From a virus: DNA of 64,000 nucleotides. The notes beneath the pieces were generated by a model that had not been told where the DNA came from, searched no databases, and saw nothing but the letters and a program-made list of their open reading frames with translations. The stretch's first letter is position 1, and the number at the start of each line of letters is the position of its first letter. Shown in pieces: positions 20,801-63,865 of the stretch. The position numbers and the translations under genes were made by a program. Location of the stretch: the IMG/VR virus record IMGVR_UViG_3300026484_000002, positions 27,282-91,281 of that record; one strand, given 5' to 3'.

Positions 20801-22501
20801 GCTTCAGAAAAAACATTAGAAAAAATAAAAAAAGAAAACGAGTTCTTGCATAGTATTCTTCATTATGCAACCAATCCTGTAGAATTGGAATCTATAGTAT
20901 CTGACATTGGTTCTAATCAATCTGATAAAAATGCTCCTGATGATTTTTTTGATGCTTCAAAAGGAGAACCTAGAAGCAACCATGCTTTAGAATCTGAAGA
21001 AGGAATAAATACTAATTTTGAAAATAAAAAAACACATATACTAAATAATACTGAAGATACTTCTGAAACACAAAACACTATAGAGAATAAAATCACAGAA
21101 CTAAATGACTTATTAGGCAATAAACAACACGAGAACTTCAGTAAACAGCTAGAAGAAACCATTGAATCAATTCCTTCTTTTTCAACTGATATACTAAACC
21201 AACTAAAAGATACAAGAGGACTTAAAAGTTATGTTACAAATGTAAAAAATGGTATAAACCTTATGCCAAAGCTTTTAACACGACTCACAAAAGAACCAAA
21301 TGAGCAAGGTACTCCTACTTGGAACGCCAGAGCTTATAGAGCAGTTACTGCATTAGAAAAGTATGCCAAGGCTGCTAATAAAATAATAGAAAGTGAAGCA
21401 TATCAAAAAATACAACAAAATGCTTTTCAGGAAAAGTTGCCCAATATAGAACAGACAGCATCTAATACTAACACTAGTATGAATGAAGTTTCTTTTGACG
21501 CAGATGAAGCTCCTTTTGATATTTCTAATATTGATATAAACACAGAACCAAAAGAAAACAATAATATTAGTACGCAAAACAACACAGTTGAGATTGGATC
21601 CAATGAAACAAAAAAAGAAATTGGATCAAACGAGACAACAGATAGTAAACTTAACGAAACAAGCAATAACAAAGATTCCAAAGAAGAAGTAGAAACAACT
21701 CCTAAAATGGATAGTACTGGATCCAATGACTATAAAATTCCAGATATGGAAACAAAACAATCAAGTGAGGCATCATTAAGTAATGAAGCACCATCAAATG
21801 TTGTCAGTAAAGTAAAAGAACAACAGCAACCCAATAAACAAACCAAACAAGCTGAGCAGCCAAGTAAAGAAAAGGTTGAATCAAATAACAAATCTAATAA
21901 AGAAGCAAATAATAAAGAAGTAAAAGAAGTAAATGATAAAGAAGAATCAAAGAACGTCAAAACAGTAGATAACCATGGTCCGATTGAAAGAAAAAACAAA
22001 TCTGATACTTTTTACAAAAATGATACAACATATAAAGATCCTATAAAACAGAAGGAAAAACAATTAGTAAATAGTGTTGTCGGTAAATTGCAGACAATAT
22101 TGAATAACTACGAAAAGAAATACAAAGAAGTAGAAACTACTTTAGGCACCGACATTAAAACAATAAAAGCAGAAAGAGCTAAGCGTACTAAATCACTAAA
22201 AGAATTTACTGGAATTAAAGATATTGCATCTAGAGGAAAAGTTAAAAAGAAATATTTTTACGAAGACTTAAGTATAACTATTGAAGACTTATTAGAAGAT
22301 ATAGATGAGAATAGTTATCTTGGAAAAAATATAATAGAAGAAGTAAATAAAATTCGACCTAATAGTAAAATAGGTATTGAAATACTTGAAAATAATAGTA
22401 TCTCTAAAACAATAGAAGAATCACTAACTAATATGCTTGATAAAGAGATCATAAGTGAAGATGTGATAAACTCTCTAGAAGAAATAACAGGATGTAACTA
22501 A
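17876..22501 (+). CDS. virion RNA polymerase part 1 (N-terminal ejection/membrane region)
   Basis: 1541 aa; Gly/Ala-rich AEGGIAELPAEYIQSG segment typical of ejection proteins; only Cys is penultimate residue. Confidence 0.65.
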   Translation: MANYPDDFTKNTNNVLDQFSQLTDTYNTAVDVIGSVPTSTNKINHLQQKKQQKIDRLNPDATLDLYNNMDIYTNEYGITKDSLNSYTPEQLQEMLGSSVNDKVYYDDKEIGPYQMKQDAEGEWNKTPFSGTTQHVYVAPSKDGNMKLGLAGVGFRERYTPGLAAKEGLTTNKNYGWAPGEKGVDPTKEPYLDIALPYDEASRLEFLTHSNKGQIANRAGGASVADYIKNVKPNVYGKGASEYTTQNAPMWNINSSNTDLPEQVVTPHIPKFLGDTSTPRSKAIGVIHDNAEYEGEPLLGQFADGVARNARGFAGGVARVIGDTAKLANDLETRAIYESAKRLYDFNEKDANELADRFQFLTKEKLDTMENAIAGEDFVTATADDTKKMEEHQKKAFKDVTWSDPSSYGKVNLPEAYNMFKTGLSSPEMTFKSLGYMLGNLIGLPEKAAIKMAGKGTLKALEYNAKKDVAKEMLSKAAKTDKLIAAGKITTEDAVKKGMTLLDPAKKAMYEKTIQLSDRALSKIPIKNKFNAFVAKNANILHLGAVTNEQDMDDYYEKHGERASLQHALLGFAANAVGAKIDLWADKTALMGTKEGFSALIKKAGKTRAQKMLTGVISGAAKMAEGGIAELPAEYIQSGIQAFNNTYKDDNAAEALTKAFHDATQGAAFGAASGIHMAGPSAGSNIITNTFTETDSDKSYENKITSDTEPTNATSDEQAQDLALDKLYTHLHEKGEPLSEEDKPLAHASVERHLNNTLQSLALAEENINAEIAKENPDTEFIGSLEKEKENLEDKISILLDMRNHTAEDGVIYNNRPIKEIDNDLTQTIEQLNNEPKDPKLIKKKRQLLLEKYIASHPLAKKANENGEDTEDSEATFDTVLSQKLYGGVTKDGYRTGIVNMVTPLFDDSISEHGKRAVKNNIERFLESQSAKEKAIEAAKTKFEEQGKDAEENPTPVIARYFTPTGTEATFEYRGIASEKTLEKIKKENEFLHSILHYATNPVELESIVSDIGSNQSDKNAPDDFFDASKGEPRSNHALESEEGINTNFENKKTHILNNTEDTSETQNTIENKITELNDLLGNKQHENFSKQLEETIESIPSFSTDILNQLKDTRGLKSYVTNVKNGINLMPKLLTRLTKEPNEQGTPTWNARAYRAVTALEKYAKAANKIIESEAYQKIQQNAFQEKLPNIEQTASNTNTSMNEVSFDADEAPFDISNIDINTEPKENNNISTQNNTVEIGSNETKKEIGSNETTDSKLNETSNNKDSKEEVETTPKMDSTGSNDYKIPDMETKQSSEASLSNEAPSNVVSKVKEQQQPNKQTKQAEQPSKEKVESNNKSNKEANNKEVKEVNDKEESKNVKTVDNHGPIERKNKSDTFYKNDTTYKDPIKQKEKQLVNSVVGKLQTILNNYEKKYKEVETTLGTDIKTIKAERAKRTKSLKEFTGIKDIASRGKVKKKYFYEDLSITIEDLLEDIDENSYLGKNIIEEVNKIRPNSKIGIEILENNSISKTIEESLTNMLDKEIISEDVINSLEEITGCN

Positions 22502-25500
22502 TGAGTTGTAATATAAAAGCAGGACATATAATAGAAGGTATAGGAAAATATTTAAAAGATGGTGATAATGCTACAGCAAATAAGTTGCAAAATGCATTAA
22601 GAGATACTACAAATTTATCTACTCACTTTACTATCGACTTTAAAAGTAAAAGTAAGTTAGATGATTATTCTAAAGAATATGACAGTAATAGCAACAACCT
22701 TACTACTACAGAACTTCACATAAACAATTCAATAAGTAATTTCATTGAAAAAGCTGTGGATCTAATTCCTAGTGTGGATAAAACGCTTCCATCTATTGAA
22801 GGTGAAATTTCACAAGGATGGCAAAGTGTTATCTCTTATTTTATTCGACCTGAAACAATAAAATCAACAGATAAATATGGAACTACAAAAGAAAAAATTA
22901 TTACTAGACTTGATCCTGATGTTCAAAGAGCAGTATCTTTAGTTACTTCTGAATGGTTAAACAATGATGCATTAACAGGCATTTCTGAACTAAGAGGTGA
23001 TGATGGAGTTAGAGCTCTGCTTGGTATGGGGACAAAAGATATCGTTACTAAAACTGAAAGAGATGCTGTAAGAGATATTGACGGTTATGTTGGTGAAGCT
23101 GCTAGGCAAATGGGTAATAAAATCTACAGCATGTTAGGCATAAGAGCAAAAGCAAATTCTCCACAAATAAATAATAAACTGATTGAAAATACATTAAAAG
23201 TAGAATTAGGTTTGTTGGCTCTAAAAACATTGGAATACAATGGAGATATATCATTGAGCAAAAAAGACATTATACTGAACGAAGAAGTTATTAGATCCCA
23301 AGTGTCAGTATATCAATTCAACAATAAACATAATAACAACATTAATCTAAATACTCCTAATGGGGTTCTTCCTTTGTCAATAAATGACAAATATAATGAT
23401 ATCAAATTTAGTAAAATATTTACTGATAAGGTAAATGAAGTAATCAACAATAAAAGAATTGCAGGGATTTATACTGATCCAAAAGAAGCAATACCATCTT
23501 ATGATGAAATAAAAAATAATGGTGTAACTGGAATACTAGGTAATATAGTCAGTGAGGCACATAAGAATGCTGTACAAAATTCTAGTAGTACCGCCTATGA
23601 ATTTAAACATGGGTTTATTAAAGGTGTAGAGTATGTAGAAAAAGCCCTTAAAAAAGCTATGGGGTATAAAGATGAAGCTAAAACTACCAAAGGACTAAGA
23701 GAAGCCACTAGAGGTAAAAATTTAGCCATAGATATGCAGTATGATAATTTAATGAATGCATATAATACTGTAGGTTTGAGCAAAAAAATGTATGCTAAAT
23801 GGGAAGTTATTACTAATAATAGATTTATGATTGATAGCAACCAACTTAATTGGCAAGATAAAAAAATGCATAGACAAAGTGTATTTTTTGAACCTGTTGT
23901 GGTTACTGAAGAAAATAAAAATGATTTCTATATGATGTTAGGTCAATCTTTTGATTTAGATATAGATAAACATTCTCCTGATGTGGTCAATAAAGCTGTT
24001 GAAGATTTGTTTAAGGATATTGAAAAAAATACAAAATTATCAGTTACTAAAAGAACTAAAAAAAGTTTAGACTCTTATTATAATAGTAAAGATTACAAAA
24101 AAGATATTGAAACATTATTTAAATACATAGTTGATAATTACAACAGTAGTGAGCCTGAACATGCATTAAGTGGTGCAGTTGAGCTTCTGGGTTGGATGCA
24201 CGAAACTAAAGCAAGTAGACCATATACTACTCAATCTATGATAGAGACTGATGCTATTACTTCTGGATATGCAATCAAAGGCTTGATGTTTCCATTTCAT
24301 GATAATAAAGAAGAAATTAACTGGAGTGAATTTGAACGCACAGGAATATTTACTGCTGATGCAGAAATTACTGATTATGGAGAATGGAAAGATAATGAAG
24401 ACAATAAAGATTCTTATGAAGTTCCAGCAGAAATGCTTACTGAAAAATTACAAGCATTATACACAGAAGATAATACAAAAGAAATTTCAGACATTATAAA
24501 ATTAATTGACAAGAAAGCTAAATTTGATAAAGATGGAGAACTAGTCTCTATATCTCGTAACTTTATGAAGAATCCTTTTATGGTTCTAAACTATGGTAGT
24601 GCTATTAAATCTATCATTAGAGCTGTTAGTAAACATGCTGAAGATGAGTTCTATCAAACTTTAGATGCACTTTTCAACAGTAAAGAAAATAGCAATAGAA
24701 AAGAACTACAAACTAGTGTTTTAAATGCAATAGCAACTATAGCTAAAAGAATGAATCCTATCTTTGATGTAGATGGTGAAATTATAGGATTTGATAGAAC
24801 CAAAGCTAATTCTACATATAAATCTATTATCAATAGATTTAAACACGAAGGCTTAGAATTTGAACTTACTTCACAAGAAGCTACAGCTCTAAGAGAAAGC
24901 ATATCAGATTTTATAGGAGAACCACTAACAAAAACATTTAAAGAAAAATATGGTAGATTTATAGAATTAACTACAACAATTAATGAATCTATGGTTGCTC
25001 AATTTAGAATAGCAAATGAAGTAATTGAAAAAGAAATAGAAAAACTTCACCAAGAAAAATTAAAAGATGCTAGTGGTAATGAAAAACTTGTAACTCCTAT
25101 GACTGATAAAGAGTATCAAGAAATAGTACAAAGTGTAGCCAATATTCTGCCTGTTGTAAATACAGCATTGGATCTGGTTGAAGGTGGTAAAGCTCCATTA
25201 TTGATAGCAGAATTAAAAGCTATAGATAATAGAGAAGTATGGGGAAATACTAGTACTAGTGGTTATGTCCGCAGCAAGTTCACTAAAAACACAAAAGAGT
25301 CAGATGTTTATATTAATAGTGCTCCTGCACAAGTTAAGAGATTATTAGAAGCATATTCTTCTGGTTCTGTAATACCTATTCATTTCTTTGATGGTAGTAT
25401 TCAAGCCAAATTATTAGCTAAGCTAAAAGCTCTTGGAGTACATGATGCCAACTTCTCTCCTATAAATATGACTATAGAAGTAACTAAAGCGTATAATGAA

Positions 25501-25998
25501 ATATTTTGGGAATTAGCTAGAGAATATAGTTTAGCAAAAGAAATTAGAGAAAGTTATTTAAATAGCTTAACCGCATTAGATGATGATATTGTTACAGCAT
25601 TAAACAGTAAATACTCAGAAACATTGAAGGATAGTTCTAAGATCCCATATACAAAGACTTTAAGTAAATTAAACAAGCAATTAGAAAATGTACATATAGA
25701 AGCTGAAAATAAAAGAGAGAAGATATTTACTACTCCTGTAGTAGTTAATCAAGCTTATTATAACAATGGCACTGAAAGTGCAGCATATATACCTAATAAA
25801 AATGAATACACTAAACAAACTATAGATGAAGATCTTGTAAACAATGCTGCTGACAAATTAAAACGATATAATAATATATCACTTGAAAATAATGCTGATA
25901 TACCAACTGATATGACGCAAACGCAAGCTTTGATTAGTGATAAAGATGCTAAAATAGCTATAAATAATGTTATAGAAAATAATAATAAGGAATGTTAA
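22501..25998 (+). CDS. virion RNA polymerase part 2 (single-subunit catalytic domain)
   Basis: Motif A ETDAITSG (~24250), motif B RNFMKNPFMVLNYGS (24556-24600), IHFFDG, motif C VHDA (25441); size similar to N4 mini-vRNAP. Confidence 0.9.
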   Translation: MSCNIKAGHIIEGIGKYLKDGDNATANKLQNALRDTTNLSTHFTIDFKSKSKLDDYSKEYDSNSNNLTTTELHINNSISNFIEKAVDLIPSVDKTLPSIEGEISQGWQSVISYFIRPETIKSTDKYGTTKEKIITRLDPDVQRAVSLVTSEWLNNDALTGISELRGDDGVRALLGMGTKDIVTKTERDAVRDIDGYVGEAARQMGNKIYSMLGIRAKANSPQINNKLIENTLKVELGLLALKTLEYNGDISLSKKDIILNEEVIRSQVSVYQFNNKHNNNINLNTPNGVLPLSINDKYNDIKFSKIFTDKVNEVINNKRIAGIYTDPKEAIPSYDEIKNNGVTGILGNIVSEAHKNAVQNSSSTAYEFKHGFIKGVEYVEKALKKAMGYKDEAKTTKGLREATRGKNLAIDMQYDNLMNAYNTVGLSKKMYAKWEVITNNRFMIDSNQLNWQDKKMHRQSVFFEPVVVTEENKNDFYMMLGQSFDLDIDKHSPDVVNKAVEDLFKDIEKNTKLSVTKRTKKSLDSYYNSKDYKKDIETLFKYIVDNYNSSEPEHALSGAVELLGWMHETKASRPYTTQSMIETDAITSGYAIKGLMFPFHDNKEEINWSEFERTGIFTADAEITDYGEWKDNEDNKDSYEVPAEMLTEKLQALYTEDNTKEISDIIKLIDKKAKFDKDGELVSISRNFMKNPFMVLNYGSAIKSIIRAVSKHAEDEFYQTLDALFNSKENSNRKELQTSVLNAIATIAKRMNPIFDVDGEIIGFDRTKANSTYKSIINRFKHEGLEFELTSQEATALRESISDFIGEPLTKTFKEKYGRFIELTTTINESMVAQFRIANEVIEKEIEKLHQEKLKDASGNEKLVTPMTDKEYQEIVQSVANILPVVNTALDLVEGGKAPLLIAELKAIDNREVWGNTSTSGYVRSKFTKNTKESDVYINSAPAQVKRLLEAYSSGSVIPIHFFDGSIQAKLLAKLKALGVHDANFSPINMTIEVTKAYNEIFWELAREYSLAKEIRESYLNSLTALDDDIVTALNSKYSETLKDSSKIPYTKTLSKLNKQLENVHIEAENKREKIFTTPVVVNQAYYNNGTESAAYIPNKNEYTKQTIDEDLVNNAADKLKRYNNISLENNADIPTDMTQTQALISDKDAKIAINNVIENNNKEC

Positions 25999-28900
25999 AT
26001 GAAATGTACTATATACGCTTTAGGTGAATACCTTGATGAGAAAGAAGATCTGCCAAAAGTCATAAAAGAATTAAGAAAATTAGATAAGTCAGATAAGTAT
26101 TTTCCTGACAGTGAATACAAAAATTTAGCAAAACAAGCAATATTGGATCACAACCAAGCTTATCAGCTTATGGAAGATCTTGATGGTAGATTTAGATATG
26201 AATACGAGAACCAATACCATGTTGTAGATATTAAAAATATAGATATAAATAACAATAAAAATGAATTAAATATAGTTCTAGCAGATAATACTACTATCAA
26301 ATATAAGATAGATAATAAAAACCTAAAAGCTATTAATCATCCTTTTTATTCAAGAGATCTTGAGTTGCAATGGAATGATGTTGTTAGCTCACCTATTGAG
26401 CTTTTATTTAATGGGGTTGATGCAAAAAGTAAAAATCTAGATAATATTATAGAAGGAAAAGAACTCCTTGATGGTAATATTGAGGCAATTCAAACAGAGT
26501 TAAGTAAGTTAGATAGAATAGCTCCTAACAGTTCATGGGATCAAGCTCATAGCAATCATTTAAAAGAAGTAATAAGTCGCATAAGTAGATCTGCTGACGA
26601 ATTAAAAACAGTACAGATAAAAGTAACTAAAAATTTAGTTGAAAATCTAAAAGAACCATTGGGTAGCTATAATACAAAAAGTAGAACTATCCAAGTTGCT
26701 ACAGCAGAAGCAATGACTAAATTTGGAATGAGCAATGAAGAAACATTGGCTCATGAATATCTTCATGCAGTATTAGATATTTTATTCAATAAGCAATTAG
26801 GTGTTATGGGTGAAGATATAAAAAATGATTTACGAAAATTATATGTACAAGCTAAAAAGAATATAACCTGGAAAGATTTAATGCCTGCTAATGAACTACA
26901 CAGTAAAGCAGCAGAAAATAAAGCTAAAGAAATATACGATTATATTTTTATTGGTAAAATTGGAGATAATAGTGTTGAAGATGCAGAAGTAAGATTAATG
27001 GAATTTCTAGTTTATGGTATGACCAATAAAGAGTTAAAATCAGCCATAGATAAAATATCATTAAAAGTCAAACCTGTGAAAGCTAAGTCTTCTGGTTTAT
27101 CTGGCATCTTTGAATATTTAATGGAAAAATTACAAGATTTAGTTTTTAAAATTAAAACCAAAACAAATAGAAGTGATAATGTAGGGTCAGAACTTACAAG
27201 ATTGGTTTATAAGCTTGGAACAATAAATAAAATGTATGCTAAAACTATTGAGAACAATAAAAACTTACCATTAGATGAAAAAATATTCTCATCTGTAGAT
27301 AAGGTTTTTAGTAAAATGGATAAAGAATTAGGCAAAAAAGTTGAGTCTATAACTAATGATTTTCTAAATGAAAAAGATGGTGATAAAATCTACACCAACG
27401 ATTTAATAACTCAAGTTAAAATGCTCAGTAAAGAACTCACAGAAGCTTATAACAAAGGCAAAATTATAAAAACTGCATGGTTATCCATTAAAGGTATATT
27501 TGTCATTATGAAAGCTTATAGATTATCTAAACAAAGTAAAAATGAAAATATTCAACGATTGTATAAAGAGTTGGATCGTTTACTTCGTAGGATGGATGAA
27601 TTTGCTGGTAAGTTTATATCTGATCTTCTCAGGGATTTCAAAGAGGGAAGAAAGACATTGGTTCAATTAGGTGACATAACTATGCAATTTAAAACCCAAT
27701 TAGATCGTGTTAAAGACATGTATTATAAAGGAACACTTAATGATATTTTTTCTGGTTTTACTAAAGTGGATCTCACTCACGAAAGACATAAAAAACTTAA
27801 CCAATCTTTAACAAATGTTATATTACGTACAGATGTACAAAGTTTCACTACCGATGTTAATGAACTTAAAAAATACATAACAGATGATAAAAAATTATCT
27901 AACACTATAAAAGAATTAGAAGATGAATTAAGTCAAGCTATGTTTAATAGCAAAACATCTACATTAAATGTAGGTCCATGGGTTGTTAATGAATGTAAAG
28001 AATTAGCTTCTTATATGATATCTAGAAAAGGAAAAAGAAATAATGCAACTAATATATCACATTTATTTGGAACCACAGAAAGTGTACCTTTAGATGAAAG
28101 CTTAAATGGACTATGGAATATTCAAAATATAGAAGAAAAAATAGATAAACTTACTAGCCTTTATGCTCTAAAAAACACAAGTATAGAAAGTAAAAAAGCA
28201 TTAATTGAATTAATTGATTTAGATAAAAATGGAGTTCAGAATTATTTAGAAATAACTAGAGGAATGGTTGCTTCAACAAAAGAAGATTGGTTCGTAACTG
28301 GATCTTTATCTGAAATGGTAAAAGGACAAATACATGAAACTCACAATAAAGATAAAGAATTAGTTTTCGCTCCTTTAAATGAAACAAATGCAATGTTAGA
28401 AGCTGGTTATTCTTTGGTTAGGAAATTAGACAAAGATGCTGGAGATATTGATATTAAAAATTATGGTTTATTTGTAACTAACACAAAAGGAGTTACAAAA
28501 AGAGTTGATGGAGCACTGGGTCTTCAAAGAATAAAAATTCCAGGACTATTGCTAAGTCAAAAAATTATGATGTCAAATAAACATTTAACTGGAAAATCTT
28601 TAGGAAGAAAAATTAGAAATGCTATAAACAATGCTAGAGTAAATGGAACAGATGGAAAAATGTATCCAGTTTATAATGATTTAGGAAATATAATTGATTA
28701 CAGATATGAATTTACATTAGATGAGGCAGAGCAATATATGGATTTGGAAACTAGAGGTTCTGAAAATTTAGCTAGAAGTTTTGGTCAAAAAAGTTCACAA
28801 ATTATTACTGATGAACACAATAAAGAATTAATAGATTTAATTATGGAAGATTCTAAAAAAATAACTAATGAAAACAAAGATCAATTCTTGCGTGTTCATG

Positions 28901-30090
28901 CAGTTGAAAATACTGATGTAAACAGTGGATCCAAGATTGATACTTTAAATGCTATGACTGAAGGTGAAGAACTATGGGGATTGCTACCAGCAGATGCTAG
29001 AAAATATATTATTGAAAAAAATATTGAAAATCTTAATGATCCAGATAACATTCCTAAAAAAGAAATTTATATCAGTAAAGATTTATTAAAACAGTTGTTT
29101 GGTTATGATGAATTAAGTATTGCAGATAGTAAATTGTTTAAAAAAATGGATGTTAAAAATAAAAATAGAATTAGAATGATAGAAGCTTGGTGGATGGATT
29201 TAATGCAAATTGCAAAAAGTATGGTAGTTGTTAAAATGCCTAGTACTATTATAGGAAATATTTTAAGTAATGCTAAATTCTTTATGTTCTCAGGAGTATC
29301 TCCTAGAAAGGCTATACAATACTTATTGTTAAGTAAAAAAAGTTTGGATAAATGGAAAAAGAATGAAAAAGCTAGACGTGATTTAGAAAGAAAAATTGAT
29401 ATAGCTACCGGATCTAAAAAAGAACAATTATTGAAACAATTAGCAGATTTAGCTTTAGAATTAAAAGATAATCCTATTATGCCATTAATTGAAGCTGGGT
29501 TATATCAAACTATTGCAGAAGATATTGACACAGAAGATTCAACTAATAGAGTTGTTCAATTATTAGATAAAACATTAGATCCAATTTATAGTAGCAATAA
29601 AACTATTGAAGATATTATTAATACAGTATTTCTTACTAAGAAAAGTACATTAGGTCAAGGATTATTACATATAATGCAAGAAAGTGACTTTCATTTTAGA
29701 TCAGCTATATATTGGGATGGTATTGAAAAAGGAATAAGTAAAGATAAGATGTTGAGAGATGTTACAGATAAATTTATTAACTATAGTCGTGTAACTAATA
29801 GTCGTTTAATTCATTGGTTGGATAGAATGGGACCAGAAGCTTTTTGGAAATATTTTGCAAATATACAAAGAGTAAATTGGAGTTTAATGAAGAAAAATAG
29901 TACTAAAGTAATTTTAGATACTACAATAAAAGAAACTGGAGTTCCTTTGTGGTCAAATGATGTATTAGATAGTTCTATTATTTATCAATTTGGTAGAAGA
30001 TTTAACCCATTAAATTGGATCAATAATACAGAAGGATTGTTAAATGCAACAGTTGATGTGCCTATTACACATTTGATTGATGGATATTAA
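25999..30090 (+). CDS. virion RNA polymerase part 3 (zincin-like domain and C-terminal region)
   Basis: ETLAHEYLHA and EFLVYGMTN; PLIEAGLYQTIAED and FINY..LDRMG motifs recalled from N4-like vRNAP C-termini. Confidence 0.75.
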   Translation: MKCTIYALGEYLDEKEDLPKVIKELRKLDKSDKYFPDSEYKNLAKQAILDHNQAYQLMEDLDGRFRYEYENQYHVVDIKNIDINNNKNELNIVLADNTTIKYKIDNKNLKAINHPFYSRDLELQWNDVVSSPIELLFNGVDAKSKNLDNIIEGKELLDGNIEAIQTELSKLDRIAPNSSWDQAHSNHLKEVISRISRSADELKTVQIKVTKNLVENLKEPLGSYNTKSRTIQVATAEAMTKFGMSNEETLAHEYLHAVLDILFNKQLGVMGEDIKNDLRKLYVQAKKNITWKDLMPANELHSKAAENKAKEIYDYIFIGKIGDNSVEDAEVRLMEFLVYGMTNKELKSAIDKISLKVKPVKAKSSGLSGIFEYLMEKLQDLVFKIKTKTNRSDNVGSELTRLVYKLGTINKMYAKTIENNKNLPLDEKIFSSVDKVFSKMDKELGKKVESITNDFLNEKDGDKIYTNDLITQVKMLSKELTEAYNKGKIIKTAWLSIKGIFVIMKAYRLSKQSKNENIQRLYKELDRLLRRMDEFAGKFISDLLRDFKEGRKTLVQLGDITMQFKTQLDRVKDMYYKGTLNDIFSGFTKVDLTHERHKKLNQSLTNVILRTDVQSFTTDVNELKKYITDDKKLSNTIKELEDELSQAMFNSKTSTLNVGPWVVNECKELASYMISRKGKRNNATNISHLFGTTESVPLDESLNGLWNIQNIEEKIDKLTSLYALKNTSIESKKALIELIDLDKNGVQNYLEITRGMVASTKEDWFVTGSLSEMVKGQIHETHNKDKELVFAPLNETNAMLEAGYSLVRKLDKDAGDIDIKNYGLFVTNTKGVTKRVDGALGLQRIKIPGLLLSQKIMMSNKHLTGKSLGRKIRNAINNARVNGTDGKMYPVYNDLGNIIDYRYEFTLDEAEQYMDLETRGSENLARSFGQKSSQIITDEHNKELIDLIMEDSKKITNENKDQFLRVHAVENTDVNSGSKIDTLNAMTEGEELWGLLPADARKYIIEKNIENLNDPDNIPKKEIYISKDLLKQLFGYDELSIADSKLFKKMDVKNKNRIRMIEAWWMDLMQIAKSMVVVKMPSTIIGNILSNAKFFMFSGVSPRKAIQYLLLSKKSLDKWKKNEKARRDLERKIDIATGSKKEQLLKQLADLALELKDNPIMPLIEAGLYQTIAEDIDTEDSTNRVVQLLDKTLDPIYSSNKTIEDIINTVFLTKKSTLGQGLLHIMQESDFHFRSAIYWDGIEKGISKDKMLRDVTDKFINYSRVTNSRLIHWLDRMGPEAFWKYFANIQRVNWSLMKKNSTKVILDTTIKETGVPLWSNDVLDSSIIYQFGRRFNPLNWINNTEGLLNATVDVPITHLIDGY

Positions 30091-40166: not shown

Positions 40167-42788
40167 TTATTTTTGATTGGTTCTAGTTATTTGAGCTATT
40201 TCATTCTCACTAACTGGATCCAGTAACATTGTATTTAGATTTCTAGTTTCTTCAACAGCATCAGCTCCTAAATCACTAAAAAATAAAAATGCTTTATGTA
40301 GCATTATATTTCTATTTCCTGTTCCTGCTTGAGTAAGAAAATGTTTTATAAATCCATTTCTTCTTTTTTGATATTCATCGTTATCTTCTAAATAACTATT
40401 TTCAATACTATTAAGTAGTGGTAATACAAGTTCTGCTTTTTCAGTTTCAGGAATTAATGCTGATACATCAAATAATTCTGCTTCATTTTTATATACTTCT
40501 GCTTCTGGATTAGTGAACCACATTCTTGATACATTTGTTGTAGCTTTATCATATATTTTTAATCCTAATACATCTGCTACGTTATCATGTAGTTTTTTAT
40601 ATTTAACTGGATCCACATAATATTTATTCTTTGTAGGAATTAATATTCTAAATCTATCACCTTGGATTTCTCCATGTTTTTCTTTTCTATGTGATTTAGT
40701 TGTATAGATTAGATATGTATATTCCTTTAGCATATCAAATGCTTCTTTAAGAGTGGTTCCATCATCCACATCAAAAGCAATCATATTATTACCCATAATA
40801 TAATATTCTTTTCCTCTATGCCCAGCTCCATTAACTGTTACACATTTCATTGTTGCTTTTGATTCTTCAAACCAAGAACAAGTAAATGATTTAATACTAT
40901 TTGATGTTATTAAAGCTTCTGCTGATTTTGATTCTCCAAAGAATGGTATTTCCAAAGGAGCATATGCAATACTTTCCATAGCTTCTTTTTTTCTACATTC
41001 ATAATCATGTACATCAATTGAGCAGATGATCTTATCTAAAGTATTCTTTTCTGGTTCTTTAATTTCCAAATAAATTGCATTTCCTTCAATTATTTTTGGT
41101 AAAAAACCTTTATGATATGTATATTCTCTAAATAAATCAACAATTTCCATTCGTTTTGTTTTTGCATCTGGAATTTCTATATAATTACCAATTTCCATTA
41201 ATGACATTTTTTTGTTTGATAACTTTAATAAATTATAAATAGATATATCTGTTCTTAATGGAGATAATGTTTCTTTAATAGTCTCTCTTGTCTTCGTGAA
41301 GAGCTTAAAAGCTTCAATTAGATGATTACCATTAACTTCATTTGATAAGTCCATAAAGGCTATTAAATGAGCTACGTTTTCAATCAAATCAACAGATCCA
41401 ACATCAACCATTTTATGTTGATTTTCAAGATTATTATTTGCATCTTCAATAATTGTATCTTTTATCTCTTCTAGAGTTTCTAAATAATTATCTGATATTT
41501 CCATGTTGTAATCTTCATATCCTTCTTGTTTAACAAGATATGTTTGTTTTATTTCATTTCCATATTCTATTGCCTCCTCTAATGCTTTTGTTTTTTCTTC
41601 ATAACTTCTCATGTTTCGTTCAATTTTTGCAATTGGAACTTCTACAACAATTGAACGCCTTAACATTCCTGAAGATAATAATCTAATTAATTTCTTTTTA
41701 GAATCTAAATCAAAACCAACATTGGATCCAAATAACAATACATTAGTAGATACACTTTCTACATTAAACATACTTTCTGATTTAATGATTTTAGAATTGA
41801 CTTTTCCATCATATAGCTGTTTTAACATATTTAATAAACTAGTTGATTGAGCTACCTCATCTCCTATTTCATTTGATATTAAATTAACTGAACCAAATTG
41901 AGCTAAAGATATAGCATTAGCTAATGAATATAGCCCTTCTTTTGTTCCAGAGGCATCTACTATTACATTTTGTGGAACATAGCGTAGAAGTACTTCTTTT
42001 AACTCATCAGATATAGATTCATCATTTACAAGATTATTTCTAAGATTTGTTTTGATTGTTTCTACATAACCTTTTTTAAATCCAGGAGTATCAGTACCAA
42101 ATACTTTTGCTGCTAAATCATAAGAGAAATCTTTTCCACAATTTCCAGTAATAAATACAAAATTGTCATGTCTTGCTAACCAGAACCCAGTCTTGGTCGT
42201 AAAACAATATTTTGTATTATTAGGTAATTGTTCATAAACAATTTGATCTTTTGAAGCTATGGTACTATTTGAAGAACCATCTTCTTTTAATGATGGAATA
42301 TAAATATTATTAAATTTTGAAACTTCTTTTGCTGTTTTTGCTTTTGAAGATTTTATATCATTTTTATTTTCTAAATATAAAACTGTGTGATCTTCTGTTA
42401 TATGCATTGAAACATTACTATTTGTGTTTGGTACATATTTTATAGCTGGTTTATCATCAAATTCTTTGATATATCTTATTGGTTCTCTGAATGTTGCTGT
42501 ATGGGTATCTTTTTCTATTTCTAATACTTTATCTCCATATTTAAAATCAGATATTTTTTTCCATCCATTTTCTGTCATAAATTCAGTATCACCAGATACA
42601 CAAGCACTTCCCGCTAATGTTAATCCATAAAATGTAATATTTTTTCCATTATATTTTTTTGCTTTTCCATTGATAGCATTAATTAATACAGCAGCGTGAA
42701 ATAAGATAGCATTTGAATATATCAATCTATCTGTTTTTCTATCACCTTGCTTTTCTAATCTATCAAGGATGTATTTATATCCTCCCAT
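40167..42788 (-). CDS. primase/helicase (N4 gp43-like) with intein
   Basis: N-terminal P-loop AGSA|CGKD; AEP motifs FDVDDG, YTTKSH, DRFRILIP; 719 aa after splicing. Confidence 0.85.
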   Translation of the reverse strand: MGGYKYILDRLEKQGDRKTDRLIYSNAILFHAAVLINAINGKAKKYNGKNITFYGLTLAGSACVSGDTEFMTENGWKKISDFKYGDKVLEIEKDTHTATFREPIRYIKEFDDKPAIKYVPNTNSNVSMHITEDHTVLYLENKNDIKSSKAKTAKEVSKFNNIYIPSLKEDGSSNSTIASKDQIVYEQLPNNTKYCFTTKTGFWLARHDNFVFITGNCGKDFSYDLAAKVFGTDTPGFKKGYVETIKTNLRNNLVNDESISDELKEVLLRYVPQNVIVDASGTKEGLYSLANAISLAQFGSVNLISNEIGDEVAQSTSLLNMLKQLYDGKVNSKIIKSESMFNVESVSTNVLLFGSNVGFDLDSKKKLIRLLSSGMLRRSIVVEVPIAKIERNMRSYEEKTKALEEAIEYGNEIKQTYLVKQEGYEDYNMEISDNYLETLEEIKDTIIEDANNNLENQHKMVDVGSVDLIENVAHLIAFMDLSNEVNGNHLIEAFKLFTKTRETIKETLSPLRTDISIYNLLKLSNKKMSLMEIGNYIEIPDAKTKRMEIVDLFREYTYHKGFLPKIIEGNAIYLEIKEPEKNTLDKIICSIDVHDYECRKKEAMESIAYAPLEIPFFGESKSAEALITSNSIKSFTCSWFEESKATMKCVTVNGAGHRGKEYYIMGNNMIAFDVDDGTTLKEAFDMLKEYTYLIYTTKSHRKEKHGEIQGDRFRILIPTKNKYYVDPVKYKKLHDNVADVLGLKIYDKATTNVSRMWFTNPEAEVYKNEAELFDVSALIPETEKAELVLPLLNSIENSYLEDNDEYQKRRNGFIKHFLTQAGTGNRNIMLHKAFLFFSDLGADAVEETRNLNTMLLDPVSENEIAQITRTNQK
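42141..42602 (-). mobile_element. mini-intein (154 aa, no endonuclease)
   Basis: Starts CVSGDTEFMT, block B ITEDH, block F YCFTT, ends ITGN followed by Cys+1. Confidence 0.92.
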
Positions 42789-56936: not shown

Positions 56937-57713
56937 TTATGCGTTTTCTAAATACCATTTTTTTTCTTTTGAATTAAATTTATATATATTTCCTTCAATG
57001 TCGCAAGTTGAAAAATGGTATTTAATCATTTTGTTTCTAAACCATTCTGGATATTCAGATTCCATACAATTATCAGTTGCATGAACATTTCTAGATGGTG
57101 CATTCCATGGTGAATAATCATGAAATATTAAAGCATTTGCACCAAATGGTACTTTCATTATTTCAGAATTTTTTTTTATATTATTTGAAAAATTACATGT
57201 ACTTTTTGTATCTCCAGAAATTAATATTATTTTTTCACTATCTCTAATTAGAATTCCGCTTGTTTCTATATGATGAATACCTGAAATTGATTTAAAAGAT
57301 ATATTATCTAATTTATCTATATTGAAAAATGATTCATTATAAACAATATTTGTTTTGTAAATATTAGCTTCAACAAATCTGAATCCTTCCATTTTTTTAT
57401 TAATTCCATCAAGAAATTTTAATGTATTTTCTCGCCCAATTATAGTAGTTGTTAGTCCATAAGTGAAATATCTATAATATAGAAATGATTTTAAAGATCC
57501 TACATGGTCATCATCAAGATGTGAAATAATTACATAAGATATATCTTTTATAATATTTGGTCTATCTTTTTCTAATTCTTTTAATTTTGTAAATACATTA
57601 TATCCACAATCAAATAAAATTGATTCATTTAATGTATTAATTAAAAATGATGAATTTATCATTTCTGTATCAAATGCTCCTCCACATCCAATTACTTCTA
57701 TTGATTTAATCAT
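56937..57713 (-). CDS. MBL-fold metallohydrolase (Apyc1/RNase Z-like)
   Basis: GCGGAF..NSSF, LFDCG, SHLDDDHVG (HxDxDH), SGDT, IFHD, VHAT. Confidence 0.85.
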   Translation of the reverse strand: MIKSIEVIGCGGAFDTEMINSSFLINTLNESILFDCGYNVFTKLKELEKDRPNIIKDISYVIISHLDDDHVGSLKSFLYYRYFTYGLTTTIIGRENTLKFLDGINKKMEGFRFVEANIYKTNIVYNESFFNIDKLDNISFKSISGIHHIETSGILIRDSEKIILISGDTKSTCNFSNNIKKNSEIMKVPFGANALIFHDYSPWNAPSRNVHATDNCMESEYPEWFRNKMIKYHFSTCDIEGNIYKFNSKEKKWYLENA

Positions 57714-59027
57714 CTACTCTCCTTTAAGTTTGGTTCCTTGATAAGAAGCTTCCATTTCTTGTATAAAAGCTTCATCATCTAATTTATCATCATCATTGTA
57801 AAACTTCATTTCATCATAAATAAATTCAGCAAATTCATTTTGTAATTTCATAATATCAAGATTTTGTACATTTGTAGCTTTTACTTTTTCACTATTTAAT
57901 TCAAAATATAATTTTTCATAATATACATTTTTATTGTCTTGTGACATTTTGTTAATAATATTATAATCTAATAATTTAATTTCATAAATAGTTTCAGCAT
58001 AATCATATAATACTTTCCATTCTTTTGAATTCCTTGTTGGAAGAGCATTTTTTATTTTAGTTTTATTGATAGGAAATTCAAATAATCCGTTAATTTTAGA
58101 TTTAAAAACAGTAGATGCATATACTTTTTCTGAAACATTATCTTTTAAAATAAAATCAATATCTGCTTTAAATTTAGATTGCTTCATAAAATCATAAAGT
58201 ATATTTGAAATATTTAAAGTTTGTTCTTCGTCATCAGTAATTTCATCATCAAGTTTATATGCTTCTAAAGTTTCTTCATTTCCAAGCATTTTAGATAGCA
58301 TTGAAATTTCATGATTTTCTTTATATGCATATGTTAAACATTTTTGTTTTTCATAAACAATATTATTGTCTTTCATACTTACTGTTCTGTATTCTGAATG
58401 TGCAATATATGCTCCACTTCTTGAATTATGAATAATAGACGCAAAGCTTGGTTCTAATCTATTTTCTTTAATAGATCCAAAAGGGAATATAATTCCTGGA
58501 TTATCTGGATTTTTATCATAATCAGTTCCTGTAAAGGAATCGTATCTCCTTGACACTGAATCACATGGATGTTTATGTATTGATTGTAAATGATTTGATA
58601 AAAATTCATAATTTTTAAAATTATATTTATTTTTAATAATTTCAACCATATTTAAAAATGATTTACTTTCTAATAATTCATTTACTTTACTATTATGTAG
58701 TGGTTCTAATTGTTTACTTGTATCATCTGTATCATTTAAATTAAAATCAATACGACCTGATGATACTTCTTGTTTATAGTTATAAAATACTGTAGGAATT
58801 GATAAATCCATAAAAGAATTATCTGCATATTTAAATCTAATAATTAATGACCAGTAATGTACTTGATATTCGTTTTGTTTTGCTAATGAACCAGTATTTT
58901 TTCTAATATTATTAATATCTTCATCATTTACTAATAATATACCTAAATTGGATCCAACTGTTTTATCTGTAATTTTAATTTTTGATTTTGTTGGAATTGT
59001 CATTTTAATTGTTTGTTTTTTCTTCAT
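57714..59027 (-). CDS. JAB/MPN-like metalloisopeptidase
   Basis: N-terminal NEYQ (candidate catalytic Glu) and IHKHP......SFTGTD (HxH..[S/T]xxD). Confidence 0.65.
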   Translation of the reverse strand: MKKKQTIKMTIPTKSKIKITDKTVGSNLGILLVNDEDINNIRKNTGSLAKQNEYQVHYWSLIIRFKYADNSFMDLSIPTVFYNYKQEVSSGRIDFNLNDTDDTSKQLEPLHNSKVNELLESKSFLNMVEIIKNKYNFKNYEFLSNHLQSIHKHPCDSVSRRYDSFTGTDYDKNPDNPGIIFPFGSIKENRLEPSFASIIHNSRSGAYIAHSEYRTVSMKDNNIVYEKQKCLTYAYKENHEISMLSKMLGNEETLEAYKLDDEITDDEEQTLNISNILYDFMKQSKFKADIDFILKDNVSEKVYASTVFKSKINGLFEFPINKTKIKNALPTRNSKEWKVLYDYAETIYEIKLLDYNIINKMSQDNKNVYYEKLYFELNSEKVKATNVQNLDIMKLQNEFAEFIYDEMKFYNDDDKLDDEAFIQEMEASYQGTKLKGE

Positions 59028-60057
59028 TTTGTTTTTCCTCTAAGATTTCTGCTATTTTATAAATTTCTAATGATTTTTTAATACACATTTTTGCATATTC
59101 TAAAGCTCCTGAAGCAATAATTTTTTTATTATATGGAGACAATAAGTTAGCATGATTTAATGTTCTTAAACCTTTTAATGTTGAATTAGATAAGTTTCCT
59201 GTACATACACTATGCCAATCTTTATTATGTTTACTCCATGCTATATTACAAGAAATCATTGGTGTTATATGCTGTCCTAAAGCTTCTCCATTAAGTTTAA
59301 TAACTGATGTTCCATAATAAGGCATAACAATACCTTTTGTAAGTATTTGATGGGCTGATAGATATAATTCATAACTAGAATCTTCTGATTTATCTTTTTT
59401 TACTTTATATTCAATATTTGCTAAACCATTATTAAAGCTAGCATTGATAATTTTAATGTCTGAATGTATTTGACTTGATGATAATTTAATAATATTATTA
59501 ATATTATTTTCTATTAATTCTAAATCTGCTGTTTCTGATTGATATTCTTTTTTACATTTATCTAAACTTTCTTGTGTGCTATATATATAAATTACTATTT
59601 TATATTCTTGATTATGCCATTCTGGATATTTATCTTTATCTGATAAAAGCATTGCTGTTACTGGATGAATAGGATTAATGATATTCTTATCATTATCAAT
59701 TAATAATGCTCCATAAAATAATTCTTCTATTTCATCGATTATTTCATTAATTAAATTGATTGCTTTTTTATAACTTTTAATATTTGTAATTGTAATAATA
59801 TTATTAGTTACTTCATCAAACAATATATCTGATAAGTGCATTTCAGATGTATATTCTTTTGTAACTATTTGTTCTCTATTTTCAATTAAATTTTTTAAAG
59901 CTTCACTTTTTGCTCCAATTCTAATTAACGGAGATCCATCTTTTATAAATTCGTTTATATTATCAATTAAGTCTGTTGGATCCATAGTATTTTTAAATTC
60001 TTCTTGTGTATGTTCTAATGTATATTGAAACATTGTTTTATTATTTATGAAATACAT
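59005..60057 (-). CDS. protein with C-terminal E2/UBC-like domain
   Basis: PMISCNI..SVCTGN followed by LNHANLLSPYN, parallel to UBC HPNI..ICL..PN..PLN. Confidence 0.6.
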   Translation of the reverse strand: MYFINNKTMFQYTLEHTQEEFKNTMDPTDLIDNINEFIKDGSPLIRIGAKSEALKNLIENREQIVTKEYTSEMHLSDILFDEVTNNIITITNIKSYKKAINLINEIIDEIEELFYGALLIDNDKNIINPIHPVTAMLLSDKDKYPEWHNQEYKIVIYIYSTQESLDKCKKEYQSETADLELIENNINNIIKLSSSQIHSDIKIINASFNNGLANIEYKVKKDKSEDSSYELYLSAHQILTKGIVMPYYGTSVIKLNGEALGQHITPMISCNIAWSKHNKDWHSVCTGNLSNSTLKGLRTLNHANLLSPYNKKIIASGALEYAKMCIKKSLEIYKIAEILEEKQNEEKTNN

Positions 60058-61203
60058 TTATTCTCCTTGTTCTTGAATATTATTAACTTGATTTTCATCC
60101 ATCATTAATCCATTAAATTCCATTTGAAATGAATATTTTCTATCTGTAGGTAATTTACTTTCACCATTAAAACTTCCCTTAGCTACAATTCTATTTTTTT
60201 CATCTAAATCATTTTCTTCAGCTAAGAATTCTAAGAATTTAATTGCCATATGCAATTGATTCATAAAAAATTGACTTAATTGAATAATTCCATAAGATTC
60301 TACTTGAAGATCTGAATCTTGAGTTGGATTTAAAATTAAAGAAAAATCATTTCCTCCATGAGTTGCTGATAAAAATCTAAGATTATTATCAACTAGCATT
60401 TCTCTTGTTTCAATATTAGGAGCACCATAAAAAATATGTTTATTTTTTATATGTTCAACTTCAATTTTAGGTTGTGCATATTCATCTCTTATTGTATATC
60501 CATAATTATCATATTTTCTTTTTATATTTATTTGTTTGAAATATTCTTGATCCATATAAATATTAAATTTACTTAAATAAAAACTATTAATATTTATTTT
60601 ATTTCTTGATAGATATTTTAATTCATTTTTAATTCCATTAATTTTATATGCATGATTTCTTGATATAATTTTATTCATATCTTTTGGAATTCTTAATAAA
60701 TTTGAAATATCATATTGTTCTTTTTCAAATATATTGATATTTTTAAATAAATTAATAGTGTTTGTCATTTTTGCTATTTCTGATAACCAAATTACTGTAT
60801 TTGCTACAGAACCACCTGCACCTACAAATGTAATATCCCATTCTTTTCTTTTTACATTTGTCATTAATGCTTTTAGATCTTTTTTTGAATATCCTAATAT
60901 TCTACATAATTGTTCAATTTCCATTTGTTTAACACCAAACATATTTGCAAACATTGGGTGAATTGCTACTGATGTTTTTGGCAAATTAGCAATATCATTT
61001 ATATAAACATCGTTCATTTTTCCTGCAACTAATATTCTAGGTACGAATGAATCAATAACTACATTTGATTTACCATTTGATGGTCTATCAAACATTGCAT
61101 ATCTGGTTCTAATCTGATCCGCTAAATATTTATTTACAAAATTAACTTTTTTATTTCTAACATTTGACCAAATTACTTCTTTTTCTGTATTTTCTGTTTC
61201 CAT
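60058..61203 (-). CDS. E1/ThiF-family adenylating enzyme
   Basis: ITFVGAGGS, FEKEQYDISNLLR..K, GAPNIETR match GxGG / DxDxxxxSNLxR / DNxxxR. Confidence 0.78.
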   Translation of the reverse strand: METENTEKEVIWSNVRNKKVNFVNKYLADQIRTRYAMFDRPSNGKSNVVIDSFVPRILVAGKMNDVYINDIANLPKTSVAIHPMFANMFGVKQMEIEQLCRILGYSKKDLKALMTNVKRKEWDITFVGAGGSVANTVIWLSEIAKMTNTINLFKNINIFEKEQYDISNLLRIPKDMNKIISRNHAYKINGIKNELKYLSRNKININSFYLSKFNIYMDQEYFKQINIKRKYDNYGYTIRDEYAQPKIEVEHIKNKHIFYGAPNIETREMLVDNNLRFLSATHGGNDFSLILNPTQDSDLQVESYGIIQLSQFFMNQLHMAIKFLEFLAEENDLDEKNRIVAKGSFNGESKLPTDRKYSFQMEFNGLMMDENQVNNIQEQGE

Positions 61204-61229
61204 TATATTTTCCTATTTTATTAACTTAT

Positions 61230-61257
61230 TAGATCCAACCTTTTTAGATTGGATCTA
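61230..61257 (-). promoter_or_regulatory. RNA hairpin between peptide gene and E1
   Basis: Minus strand UAGAUCCAAUCU-AAAA-AGGUUGGAUCUA, 12-bp stem with one G-U, no U tract. Confidence 0.7.
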
Positions 61258-61261
61258 TAAA

Positions 61262-61387
61262 CTAACTTCCTGATTGTGAAGTTGTTTTTAATGATGCACT
61301 ATCACTAATGCTAACTGAACTATTTGTAGTAGTATCTTTACCTGCAATTTTTGCTGCAATTTTTTGAGCTAATGTTTCTTCTGCCAT
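61262..61387 (-). CDS. 41-aa peptide, candidate modifier/precursor (not in ORF track)
   Basis: MAEETLAQKIAAKIAGKDTTTNSSVSISDSASLKTTSQSGS; AAGGAG SD. Confidence 0.75.
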   Translation of the reverse strand: MAEETLAQKIAAKIAGKDTTTNSSVSISDSASLKTTSQSGS

Positions 61388-61390
61388 ATT

Positions 61391-61921
61391 TTACTCCTTA
61401 ACAATTGATGGTTTAACTAATAATGTTTTAATGATATCTGTATCAATACCTGTTAATTTTACAAGTTCCATCATAATTTTCTTATTAGATGCTAATGAAA
61501 TATAATCAATTGAAGGATGTTCAATTTTATATCCAAAGACTCCATTTCTAATTACTTGAGTTAATACATAAACCCCTACTGTAACAAGTTGTTCTTTTCG
61601 TTTATTGGACATAGTGAGTTTTTGCCACCAAGATAATCTTGATAAGATTACATTTTCTACTAATGTTTCAATATTTTGAAGCAGAATTTCTCCTGTTACA
61701 ATTTTTCCGTTAAGTTTTGTTTCTTCTGAAACTCTATCGATTGTTTTTTGCATTTCATTTTCCTTTGTGTTTTGTTTTGTATATCTTACATATTCATTAA
61801 TCGCTTCTTCTGCGACACTTGTTGCGTATGCTTCTGCATCTTCTTTAAATACTATTTGAACATCATCTTCAATTTCGTATTCATTTAAATCATCTACATA
61901 TAATGTATTTAAAATAGCCAT
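61391..61921 (-). CDS. hypothetical protein
   Basis: 176 aa, AAGGAG SD. Confidence 0.6.
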   Translation of the reverse strand: MAILNTLYVDDLNEYEIEDDVQIVFKEDAEAYATSVAEEAINEYVRYTKQNTKENEMQKTIDRVSEETKLNGKIVTGEILLQNIETLVENVILSRLSWWQKLTMSNKRKEQLVTVGVYVLTQVIRNGVFGYKIEHPSIDYISLASNKKIMMELVKLTGIDTDIIKTLLVKPSIVKE

Positions 61922-63274: not shown

Positions 63275-63865
63275 TTATTCTTTAGTTAAATTATCATATA
63301 GTTTTTCTGTAAATACTTGTGGATATAGTTGAGCAAACTTACTATATAAATCTTTTGCTAATTCCCTAATTTCATATTGAGCATGAGATGTTAATCTTAG
63401 TTTAAAAAAATCCATCCATGCTTGTAAGTTACCTGAAACTCTCATATTAGTTGAAGTATTCATAGGGAGAACTGCTCTAGCATCTTCTTTTTTTACTTTA
63501 TTATTGATTAGTTCTTCATATGTTTTAATAGCTTGATCCCAAGATTCTTTCATTAACTCTTGTTGATTTGGATCCAATCCTTCAGGCATAATAAATTGCA
63601 TTTTATTTGCAGATACATATCTCATAGATTGAACTAAGAAATCTAAATGTTTGGATCTAACTACTTGATCTGAACATGCTCTTGATATGTTTTTAATATC
63701 TACTACTACAAATGCAAATCTAAGTACTGCAAGATGTCCATATCCATGAACCAATTGATTGGTAATATCTTTACCTCCATCTTCAATAAGTTTGCTTGCA
63801 TAACAAATTTTTGCACTTTCTCCAATTATATTTTCTGGTGTATAAGTAATAATTTTAGTTTTCAT
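63275..63865 (-). CDS. thyX: flavin-dependent thymidylate synthase (variant motif)
   Basis: SRACSDQVVRSKHLDFLVQSMRY, KEDARAVLP, LRLTSHAQYEIR. Confidence 0.85.
   Translation of the reverse strand: MKTKIITYTPENIIGESAKICYASKLIEDGGKDITNQLVHGYGHLAVLRFAFVVVDIKNISRACSDQVVRSKHLDFLVQSMRYVSANKMQFIMPEGLDPNQQELMKESWDQAIKTYEELINNKVKKEDARAVLPMNTSTNMRVSGNLQAWMDFFKLRLTSHAQYEIRELAKDLYSKFAQLYPQVFTEKLYDNLTKE

Follow-up and report, generated by a model that had tools for sequence, protein, structure and literature searches.

A cassette of four genes near the right end of an N4-like phage genome encodes a 41-residue peptide, an E1-fold enzyme, a protein with an invariant cysteine and a JAB-like protein, and we read it, with somewhat more confidence than doubt, as a minimal conjugation system of the ubiquitin type that belongs to the phage and uses as its tag an unfolded peptide of ~40 residues and not a beta-grasp protein. 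The window, that is, the whole 64,000-nucleotide stretch analysed, covers positions 27282-91281 of a virus record (IMG/VR record IMGVR_UViG_3300026484_000002) that is complete at 91,281 bp and has direct terminal repeats, and the cassette is located on the strand of the replication and nucleotide-metabolism genes, 3-7 kb short of the right end of the genome. The original prediction for this locus described five co-oriented genes, for a peptide, an E1, an E2, a JAB protein and a metallo-beta-lactamase-fold (MBL) hydrolase, in an N4-like phage. The common orientation and the junctions were borne out by the open-reading frame (ORF) coordinates, with the E1 and Cys protein genes abutting (60058/60057), the Cys protein and JAB-like genes overlapping by 23 nt (59027/59005) and the JAB-like and MBL genes abutting (57714/57713), and the N4-like assignment was borne out by a virion RNA polymerase (phrog_2206) and an SU10-type portal in the record. 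All of the motifs on which the enzyme assignments rested are present in the translations, namely GAGGS and SNLLR in the 381-aa protein, CNI..VCTGN..ANLLSPYN in the 350-aa protein and E..HKHP..FTGTD in the 437-aa protein, and they are more than chance resemblances, as their residues vary little or not at all among 91, 45 and 149 homologues, respectively. Scans of single proteins with Pfam, PHROGs, NCBIfam and PADLOC named the MBL protein alone, and searches of the PDB sequences by phmmer and by profile hmmsearch returned nothing usable for the three enzymes. Since the E1/E2/JAB reading rested on short motifs, it was tested with homologues, predicted structures and profile comparisons.

For the 381-aa protein, 91 homologue clusters were found in the protein collection, none of them named and none with a Pfam domain, and an AlphaFold2 (AF2) model built on these homologues reached a predicted local distance difference test score (pLDDT) of 89.9 and a predicted template modelling score (pTM) of 0.90. 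The top Foldseek matches of this model in the PDB were MccB (first), Uba4, Uba6, ThiF, MoeB and PaaA, with E values of 1e-7 to 1e-5 and a probability of 1.00. In VIA structural comparisons the best match was the E1 domain of Cap2 (7to3, Z 13.2, root-mean-square deviation (rmsd) 3.4, 187 aligned), followed by the Bil E1 8tyz (Z 12.2), AclA (11.8), MccB (11.7) and Uba1/6/7, ThiF and MoeB (~11), the E1 superfamily covering a range of Z 10.8-13.2 over model residues about 106-348. An hhalign comparison of the family with 17 Bacillota ThiF/MoeB proteins gave P 7.9e-5 with the Gly loop and SNL-R aligned, and the residues invariant in the 91 homologues (G128, G130, G131, N168, R171, K187, and R267) correspond to the ThiF/MoeB nucleotide-binding set of GxGGxG loop, SNLxR, Lys and Arg. 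The predicted E1/ThiF identity of the 381-aa protein is confirmed at the level of the modelled fold by AF2, Foldseek and VIA. The N-terminal domain, of residues ~1-105, is specific to the family; no informative N-terminal fusion was found when 28 relatives were scanned against Pfam, and many relatives carry a further, unconserved N-terminal extension. The threshold of Pfam PF00899 was not reached, with no match for the window E1 and a match at E 0.093 for one of the 28 relatives. A match of the E1 profile to the G-loop of FtsZ among the PDB sequences (E 1.6) was dismissed on the predicted fold.

The AF2 model of the 350-aa protein (pLDDT 89.3) has a core of about residues 1-45 plus 195-335, into which an alpha/beta domain of about residues 76-176 is inserted. 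From the N-terminus, the model runs through a helix, a meander of 4-5 strands (200-263), a loop with Cys285 and then helices, a predicted topology that fits UBC. Eight residues are invariant in 45 homologues (N128, H131, Y248, G249, N271, C285, G287, and S307), and the order N271, C285, S307-Pro resembles that of three elements of E2 enzymes, the Asn of HPN, the catalytic Cys and (W)SP. In a wide VIA comparison, 11 of the top 50 rows were UBC E2s (Z 3.0-3.8, 104-115 aligned), among them UBE2F, UbcH5, UbcH10, Pex4, Ubc12, Ubc13, UBE2S and UBE2G2; of these top 50 rows, the E2s alone span the model from about 24-34 to about 324-330, and the rest match the inserted alpha/beta domain (~76-176) alone. 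A second structural look returned TSG101 UEV domains (Z 2.6-2.9) and, again, Ube2g2. One homologue in BFVD is an uncharacterised protein of Podoviridae sp. ctiuS14, and the ESM Atlas, whose model of the E2-like part was poor, gave only sub-0.9 leads (DUF6551). The Prok-E2 family PF14461, sought for a reference profile, turned up neither in 401 Bacillota genomes nor in the controls.

A profile search of 1.84 billion protein representatives found 409 relatives of the 437-aa protein, of which the first ~260 residues are conserved and the C-terminal part is variable. In 149 relatives H151, H153, P154 and D169 do not vary, and E53 and S166 reach at least 90% conservation, giving a family pattern of Glu...HxHP...SxxD that is close to the Rpn11/Prok-JAB signature. 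When 89 relatives were scanned singly against Pfam, Prok-JAB was the only family matched by more than two members (9/89, best E 0.0069), and hhalign, which brought the Glu, HxH and SxxD columns of the family into register with 23 Bacillota Prok-JAB proteins, gave P 0.006-0.015, compared to P 0.34 and 0.63 for the control alignments of the E1 and E2-like families. The ESM Atlas gave no usable match for the JAB-like part. The JAMM residues, the recurrent sub-threshold Prok-JAB matches and the hhalign register together support the predicted JAB assignment well, and on these sequence features the 437-aa protein is probably a JAB/JAMM peptidase. In some loci (L006/L007/L034/L049:9068-9502, L014:9015-9413) the JAB-like ORF ends after 132-144 residues, before the HxH, and in L014 the next ORF, of 264 aa, continues the protein; these short ORFs may reflect a frameshift, a split gene or a sequencing error.

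The gene order peptide, E1, Cys protein, JAB-like protein was found in all 16 IMG/VR loci and in every metagenome locus with enough flanking sequence, so that the check on neighbourhood conservation proposed with the original prediction came out in its favour for these four genes, which alone make up the conserved unit. All cassette loci with enough sequence come from uncultured N4-like phages, and an N4-type virion RNA polymerase is encoded by 10/10 of the cassette-bearing viral contigs tested. Searches of 50,697 GenBank phage records with the E1 (tblastn) and the region (blastn) gave no match. Among 185,579 species genomes, the E1 occurred only on two short contigs (90-92% identity) in a Peptostreptococcaceae metagenome-assembled genome, which is a weak hint of the host. 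Metagenomes hold about 90 E1 clusters and about 400 JAB-like clusters, none of them named.

The 41-aa peptide has an N-terminal amphipathic helix (LAQKIAAKIAG), a Ser/Thr-rich middle and the C-terminal end ...SQSG|S, and its gene, present in a single copy within the window, has an AAGGAG Shine-Dalgarno sequence 7 nt upstream. A hidden Markov model (HMM) search of small ORFs gave a family of 30 distinct members of 37-56 aa, plus one 70-aa repeat form, and the matches (E 1e-7 to 1e-18) are confined to the slot directly upstream of E1. The family shares the amphipathic N-terminal helix (LAxxIAAxIAG), a Thr/Ser-rich stretch and a C-terminal [K/G/E]-S-G; a Gly stands 1-8 residues from the end in 30/30 members and is never terminal, Ser precedes it in 28/30, and the residues after it are unconserved. 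Most loci have a Shine-Dalgarno sequence before the peptide gene, and rough ratios of nonsynonymous to synonymous substitution (dN/dS) for moderately diverged pairs were 0.28-0.53. The 58-nt spacer between the peptide and E1 genes folds at -15.8 kcal/mol in RNAfold, and in nearly every related locus a hairpin of 8-12 bp, of unrelated sequence, follows the peptide stop codon, which suggests that the peptide message outlasts or outnumbers that of the enzymes.

Before they are trimmed by a JAB protease or a deubiquitinase, precursors of ubiquitin-like proteins (Ubls) carry their Gly capped by a disposable tail. Because the peptide family stands strictly upstream of E1, ends in a Gly plus a tail and is followed by a hairpin after its gene, the unfolded peptide is likely the modifier, replacing a beta-grasp Ubl. 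This explains why no beta-grasp Ubl had been seen, an absence that holds for the window: scans of the window proteins gave no match to a Ubl family, the sole conserved small partner is the peptide, and at 37-56 aa the peptides are too short for a beta-grasp. The repeat form was observed in one metagenome locus (L042:269-499), where the peptide ORF holds two in-frame copies of the ...VEVKTADSTSLQGKAGSG unit, a truncated first unit being followed by a full second unit and then a single residue. This head-to-tail arrangement, seen in one case only, recalls polyubiquitin precursors and could be a recent duplication or an assembly artefact. In another locus (L008:6702-6777, likewise in L015) a tRNA-Gln with anticodon TTG stands between the peptide and E1 genes in place of the usual simple hairpin.

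Several results weigh against this reading. In the E1 family, no Cys is invariant or near-invariant in the 91 homologues, which rules out a thioester on the enzyme itself. In MoeB/ThiF, the canonical Asp that binds Mg falls in a strand between the Lys and Arg positions that correspond to K187 and R267, and no Asp is invariant between these two in the 91 sequences; in the hhalign alignment the family has YGAPxIxTR where ThiF has DxxDNxxxR, so that YGAP seems to replace DxxD, and the chemistry of this enzyme may differ from that of known E1s. In the JAB-like family, the gathering threshold of Prok-JAB (PF14464) was not reached, all matches being sub-threshold and the window protein giving none. 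For the 350-aa protein, the Foldseek comparison proposed with the original prediction, which had given ThiF/MoeB matches for the E1 model, returned nothing from the PDB at E < 0.1 (Ube2g2 at E 0.53), an exhaustive VIA comparison returned no Z >= 5 (best Z 3.8 for 3fn1, rmsd 4.6, 107 aligned), and no UBC-clan Pfam match was found in the 45 family members at E up to 1. Of the predicted E2 identity, what stands is that the whole-span matches are all UBC or UEV domains and that an invariant Cys follows the beta-meander, and what fails is a significant match by fold or family; taking both sides, we favour a derived UBC-like Cys carrier by a modest measure. The cassette is also missing from some related N4-like contigs: among contigs with a capsid protein 61-68% identical to that of the window, of which two positive controls carry E1, the E1 was absent from a 95.8-kb contig (92% complete) and an 82-kb contig (88% complete), and the cassette is therefore common but accessory.

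In the scheme that we infer for the chemical steps, the target and the biological role of the cassette, the peptide would be made in excess of the enzymes, given its own Shine-Dalgarno sequence and the stem-loop before the enzyme genes. The putative JAB/JAMM peptidase would cut off the short variable tail after the fixed Ser-Gly and so expose a C-terminal Gly, while the E1-fold enzyme would bind the peptide, probably by holding its N-terminal helix on the extra N-terminal domain, and would adenylate the Gly carboxylate with ATP. Because the E1 has no conserved cysteine, the acyl group would pass directly to the invariant Cys285 of the UBC-like protein and from there to an amine, most likely that of a lysine, on a host or phage protein, a mark that the JAB enzyme may also reverse. 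Bub systems offer precedents for JAB cleavage after a conserved Gly and for E1s without a catalytic Cys (PMC11601596). The more specific proposal, that a fold-less peptide of ~40 residues trimmed by the JAB enzyme serves, with the Cys-less E1 and the UBC-like Cys carrier, as a true ubiquitin-type modifier that is attached to host or phage proteins during infection, is offered tentatively, as a little short of an even call.

The alternative that survives best, though we consider it unlikely, is the maturation of a ribosomally synthesised and post-translationally modified peptide (RiPP), in which the peptide would be the precursor of a bioactive product and not a protein tag. The JAB protein would then remove a follower, the E1-like enzyme would activate the C-terminus, as MccB does for microcin C and PaaA for pantocin, and the Cys protein would help to modify the peptide further, for instance by amidation, by cyclisation or with a nucleotide adduct. 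MccB is indeed the top Foldseek match (VIA Z 11.7), and PaaA and AclA, which are likewise E1-like enzymes acting on small peptides, were also matched, but VIA aligns MccB over the adenylation domain (106-348) alone and not over its peptide clamp. Similarly, the layout of a small-precursor gene, a hairpin and an E1-like gene is generally known from the mcc operon, whereas 0/30 peptides end in the Asn that microcin C chemistry requires and the residues after the Gly are unconserved. An E1 without a thioester Cys would suit this route, but it is Ubl systems, not known RiPP pathways, that are marked by JAB peptidases and a UBC-like Cys protein, and the conserved unit has no exporter, immunity gene or other tailoring enzyme.

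A second alternative is that the enzymes act on a Ubl, CD-NTase (cGAS/DncV-like nucleotidyltransferase) or other C-terminus of the host and so subvert conjugation of the Bil or CBASS (cyclic oligonucleotide-based antiphage signalling system) type, with the small ORF being regulatory or unrelated. We think this improbable, because no partner of the enzymes is linked to them more tightly than the peptide, which is found at every locus that has upstream sequence, and its Gly plus tail is exactly what would be expected of an E1/JAB substrate, even though the Cap2 and Bil E1s are the top structural matches. The cassette adjoins an Apyc1-like anti-defence gene in the window phage and is patchy among related phages, in the manner of accessory counter-defence genes, but a single host substrate would be unlikely, the hosts appearing to differ widely in GC content and habitat. 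Least probable of all is a sulfur carrier, in which adenylation of the trimmed peptide would lead to a thiocarboxylate at its C-terminus, in the manner of ThiS, MoaD, QbsE and TtuB, with Cys285 as a persulfide relay and the sulfur passing into a nucleoside, cofactor or metabolite: ThiF, MoeB and Uba4 are among the best E1 matches, the E1 lacks its own catalytic Cys, and QbsD/QbsE is a generally known case of JAMM trimming of a carrier's C-terminal extension, but neither a rhodanese nor a cysteine desulfurase nor a PP-loop thiolase is encoded in the cassette, and known carriers are beta-grasp proteins ending in Gly-Gly, where here Ser-Gly stands on an unfolded peptide.

Given these comparisons, we prefer the conjugation system with a peptide tag, and the features of its locus are listed with their window coordinates in Table 1.

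Table 1 Features of the cassette and the adjoining genes in the window
Feature	Position	Strand	Remark
41-aa peptide ORF	61262..61387	minus	proposed modifier or substrate
Stem-loop between peptide stop and E1 start	61230..61257	minus	12-bp stem, AAAA loop, no T-run after
E1/ThiF-fold adenylating enzyme, 381 aa	60058..61203	minus	predicted fold and invariant motifs
Cys protein with invariant Cys285, 350 aa	59005..60057	minus	probable, highly derived UBC(E2)-like core
Probable JAB/MPN+ (JAMM) zinc peptidase, 437 aa	57714..59027	minus	N-terminal ~260 aa, motif conservation
MBL-fold hydrolase, Apyc1-like, 258 aa	56937..57713	minus	adjoining gene outside the conserved cassette
176-aa protein without family match	61391..61921	minus	directly upstream; stop 3 nt before peptide start codon

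The MBL gene had been predicted as a fifth member of the operon, an assignment that we reject since an MBL gene lies near the cassette in only 1/16 viral loci (L009), where it is upstream. The protein matches Pfam Lactamase_B (4.8e-11) and, below the 50-bit cut-off, Anti-Pycsar_Apyc1 (33.7 bits), and its PDB sequence matches are 7fct, a 246-aa MBL protein (3.5e-10), and Apyc1 (7u2s/7u2r, 4e-7 to 8e-7). Its metal motif is SHLDDDH, not HxHxDH, and its length is the same as that of Apyc1. We take it for a separate and probably anti-signalling hydrolase, and its sequence makes a cyclic-nucleotide phosphodiesterase for counter-defence possible.

On the other side of the cassette, the 176-aa protein gave no family match and has a homologue at the same position in L009 (E 2e-21). 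In ~60% of loci the upstream slot instead holds an unrelated Lys-rich protein of 62-116 aa that is translationally coupled to the peptide gene. This protein, absent from the window and exemplified by L001:6542-6799, L002:5604-5891 and L010:5409-5720, has an ORF that often overlaps the peptide gene and consists of an N-terminal helix, a Lys-rich linker (e.g., KKAKKAKKNK) and a small beta-beta-alpha-beta-beta core. It had no family or PDB sequence match, the RecA-concatemer matches that alone were returned by its profile against the PDB being judged artefactual, and it may serve as an adaptor or a dedicated acceptor, or be a tiny Ubl-like domain.

An initial placement of the cassette among "early genes" was narrowed to the early/middle DNA-metabolism arm, with a thymidylate-synthase-like gene upstream. 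The latter, a 196-aa ORF (63275-63865) situated 1.4 kb upstream of the gene for the 176-aa protein, has a match to the thymidylate-synthase PHROG that is confined to the C-terminal half of that profile (positions 371-582). Elsewhere in the window, the N4-type virion RNA polymerase (17876-30090) is divided among three ORFs that abut, with lengths of 1541, 1165 and 1363 aa; phrog_2206 is matched over its positions 1027-1993 by the second and 2280-3400 by the third, the first has no PHROG match, and the matches are split or interrupted by stop codons in related contigs too. A primase/helicase-like gene (phrog_2135, 40167-42788) has a match to a Hint module near its N-terminus (residues 61-169), below the Pfam cut-off, which suggests an intein or an intein remnant.

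Prokaryotic conjugation by E1, E2 and JAB enzymes has so far belonged to bacterial defence, in type II CBASS, Bil and Bub systems, where the modifier is a folded Ubl or an enzyme's own tail. Our full-text literature searches returned bacterial work on Cap2/Cap3, Bil and Bub and nothing on such a phage cassette or on an E1-dependent peptide tag. If the reading presented here is true, the cassette would be the first case of bacterial viruses with a complete E1-E2-protease conjugation system of their own and would provide the first E1-dependent protein tag without a beta-grasp fold, making ubiquitin-type chemistry independent of that fold. Phages would then own a protein-tagging tool, for host takeover or for counter-defence, a whole family of nameless phage genes would gain a function, and biotechnology would gain a very small, genetically encodable set of tag and ligase.

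The cassette shares with type II CBASS, in which Cap2 is an E2-E1 fusion and Cap3 a JAB protein, the triad of an E1, an E2-like protein and a JAB protein, and Cap2 is the best structural match of its E1. In both, the C-terminus activated, or here proposed to be activated, does not belong to a beta-grasp Ubl, being in CBASS the tail of the CD-NTase. The cassette differs in that its E1 and E2-like protein are separate genes, its E1 has no conserved Cys, its proposed substrate is a dedicated peptide of ~40 aa and its setting is a lytic N4-like phage and not a bacterial defence island; no PADLOC or Pfam match to a CD-NTase or an effector was found among the cassette and flanking proteins. Bil (BilABCD) likewise pairs a separate E2, JAB and E1 with a modifier of its own, whose C-terminal Gly must be exposed, and the Bil E1 is the second-best structural match of the cassette E1, whereas the latter has a single adenylation domain without the Cys and its proposed modifier is an unfolded peptide. 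Bub (6E/DUF6527) resembles the cassette in a strongly diverged E2, a Cys-less E1 and JAB cleavage after a conserved Gly (PMC11601596). The two part ways where Bub has a Ser in its E2, oxyester intermediates, beta-grasp Ubls and the DUF6527 serine protease, while the cassette has an invariant Cys in the E2-like protein, no DUF6527 and a peptide as its likely modifier.

Outside these defence systems, the MccA/MccB pair of microcin C7, as well as PaaA and AclA, share with the cassette an E1-fold enzyme whose substrate, proposed in the case of the cassette, is a small ribosomal peptide with its gene immediately upstream. MccA has a C-terminal Asn and is converted to a peptidyl-nucleotide, and these pathways have no JAB or Cys protein, whereas the fixed residue of the cassette peptide is a Gly followed by a disposable tail. 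Pup and UBact are alike, as is generally known, in being small disordered modifiers with a Gly-containing C-terminal motif that is processed before ligation, but Pup is ligated through a Glu side chain by the glutamine-synthetase-like PafA, without E1, E2 or JAB enzymes, and there is no sequence relation to the cassette peptide. Compared to all of these, what is new here is a lytic phage as the owner, an unfolded peptide as the proposed modifier and an E1 without the Cys, in a system whose enzymology is recognisably that of E1, E2 and JAB.

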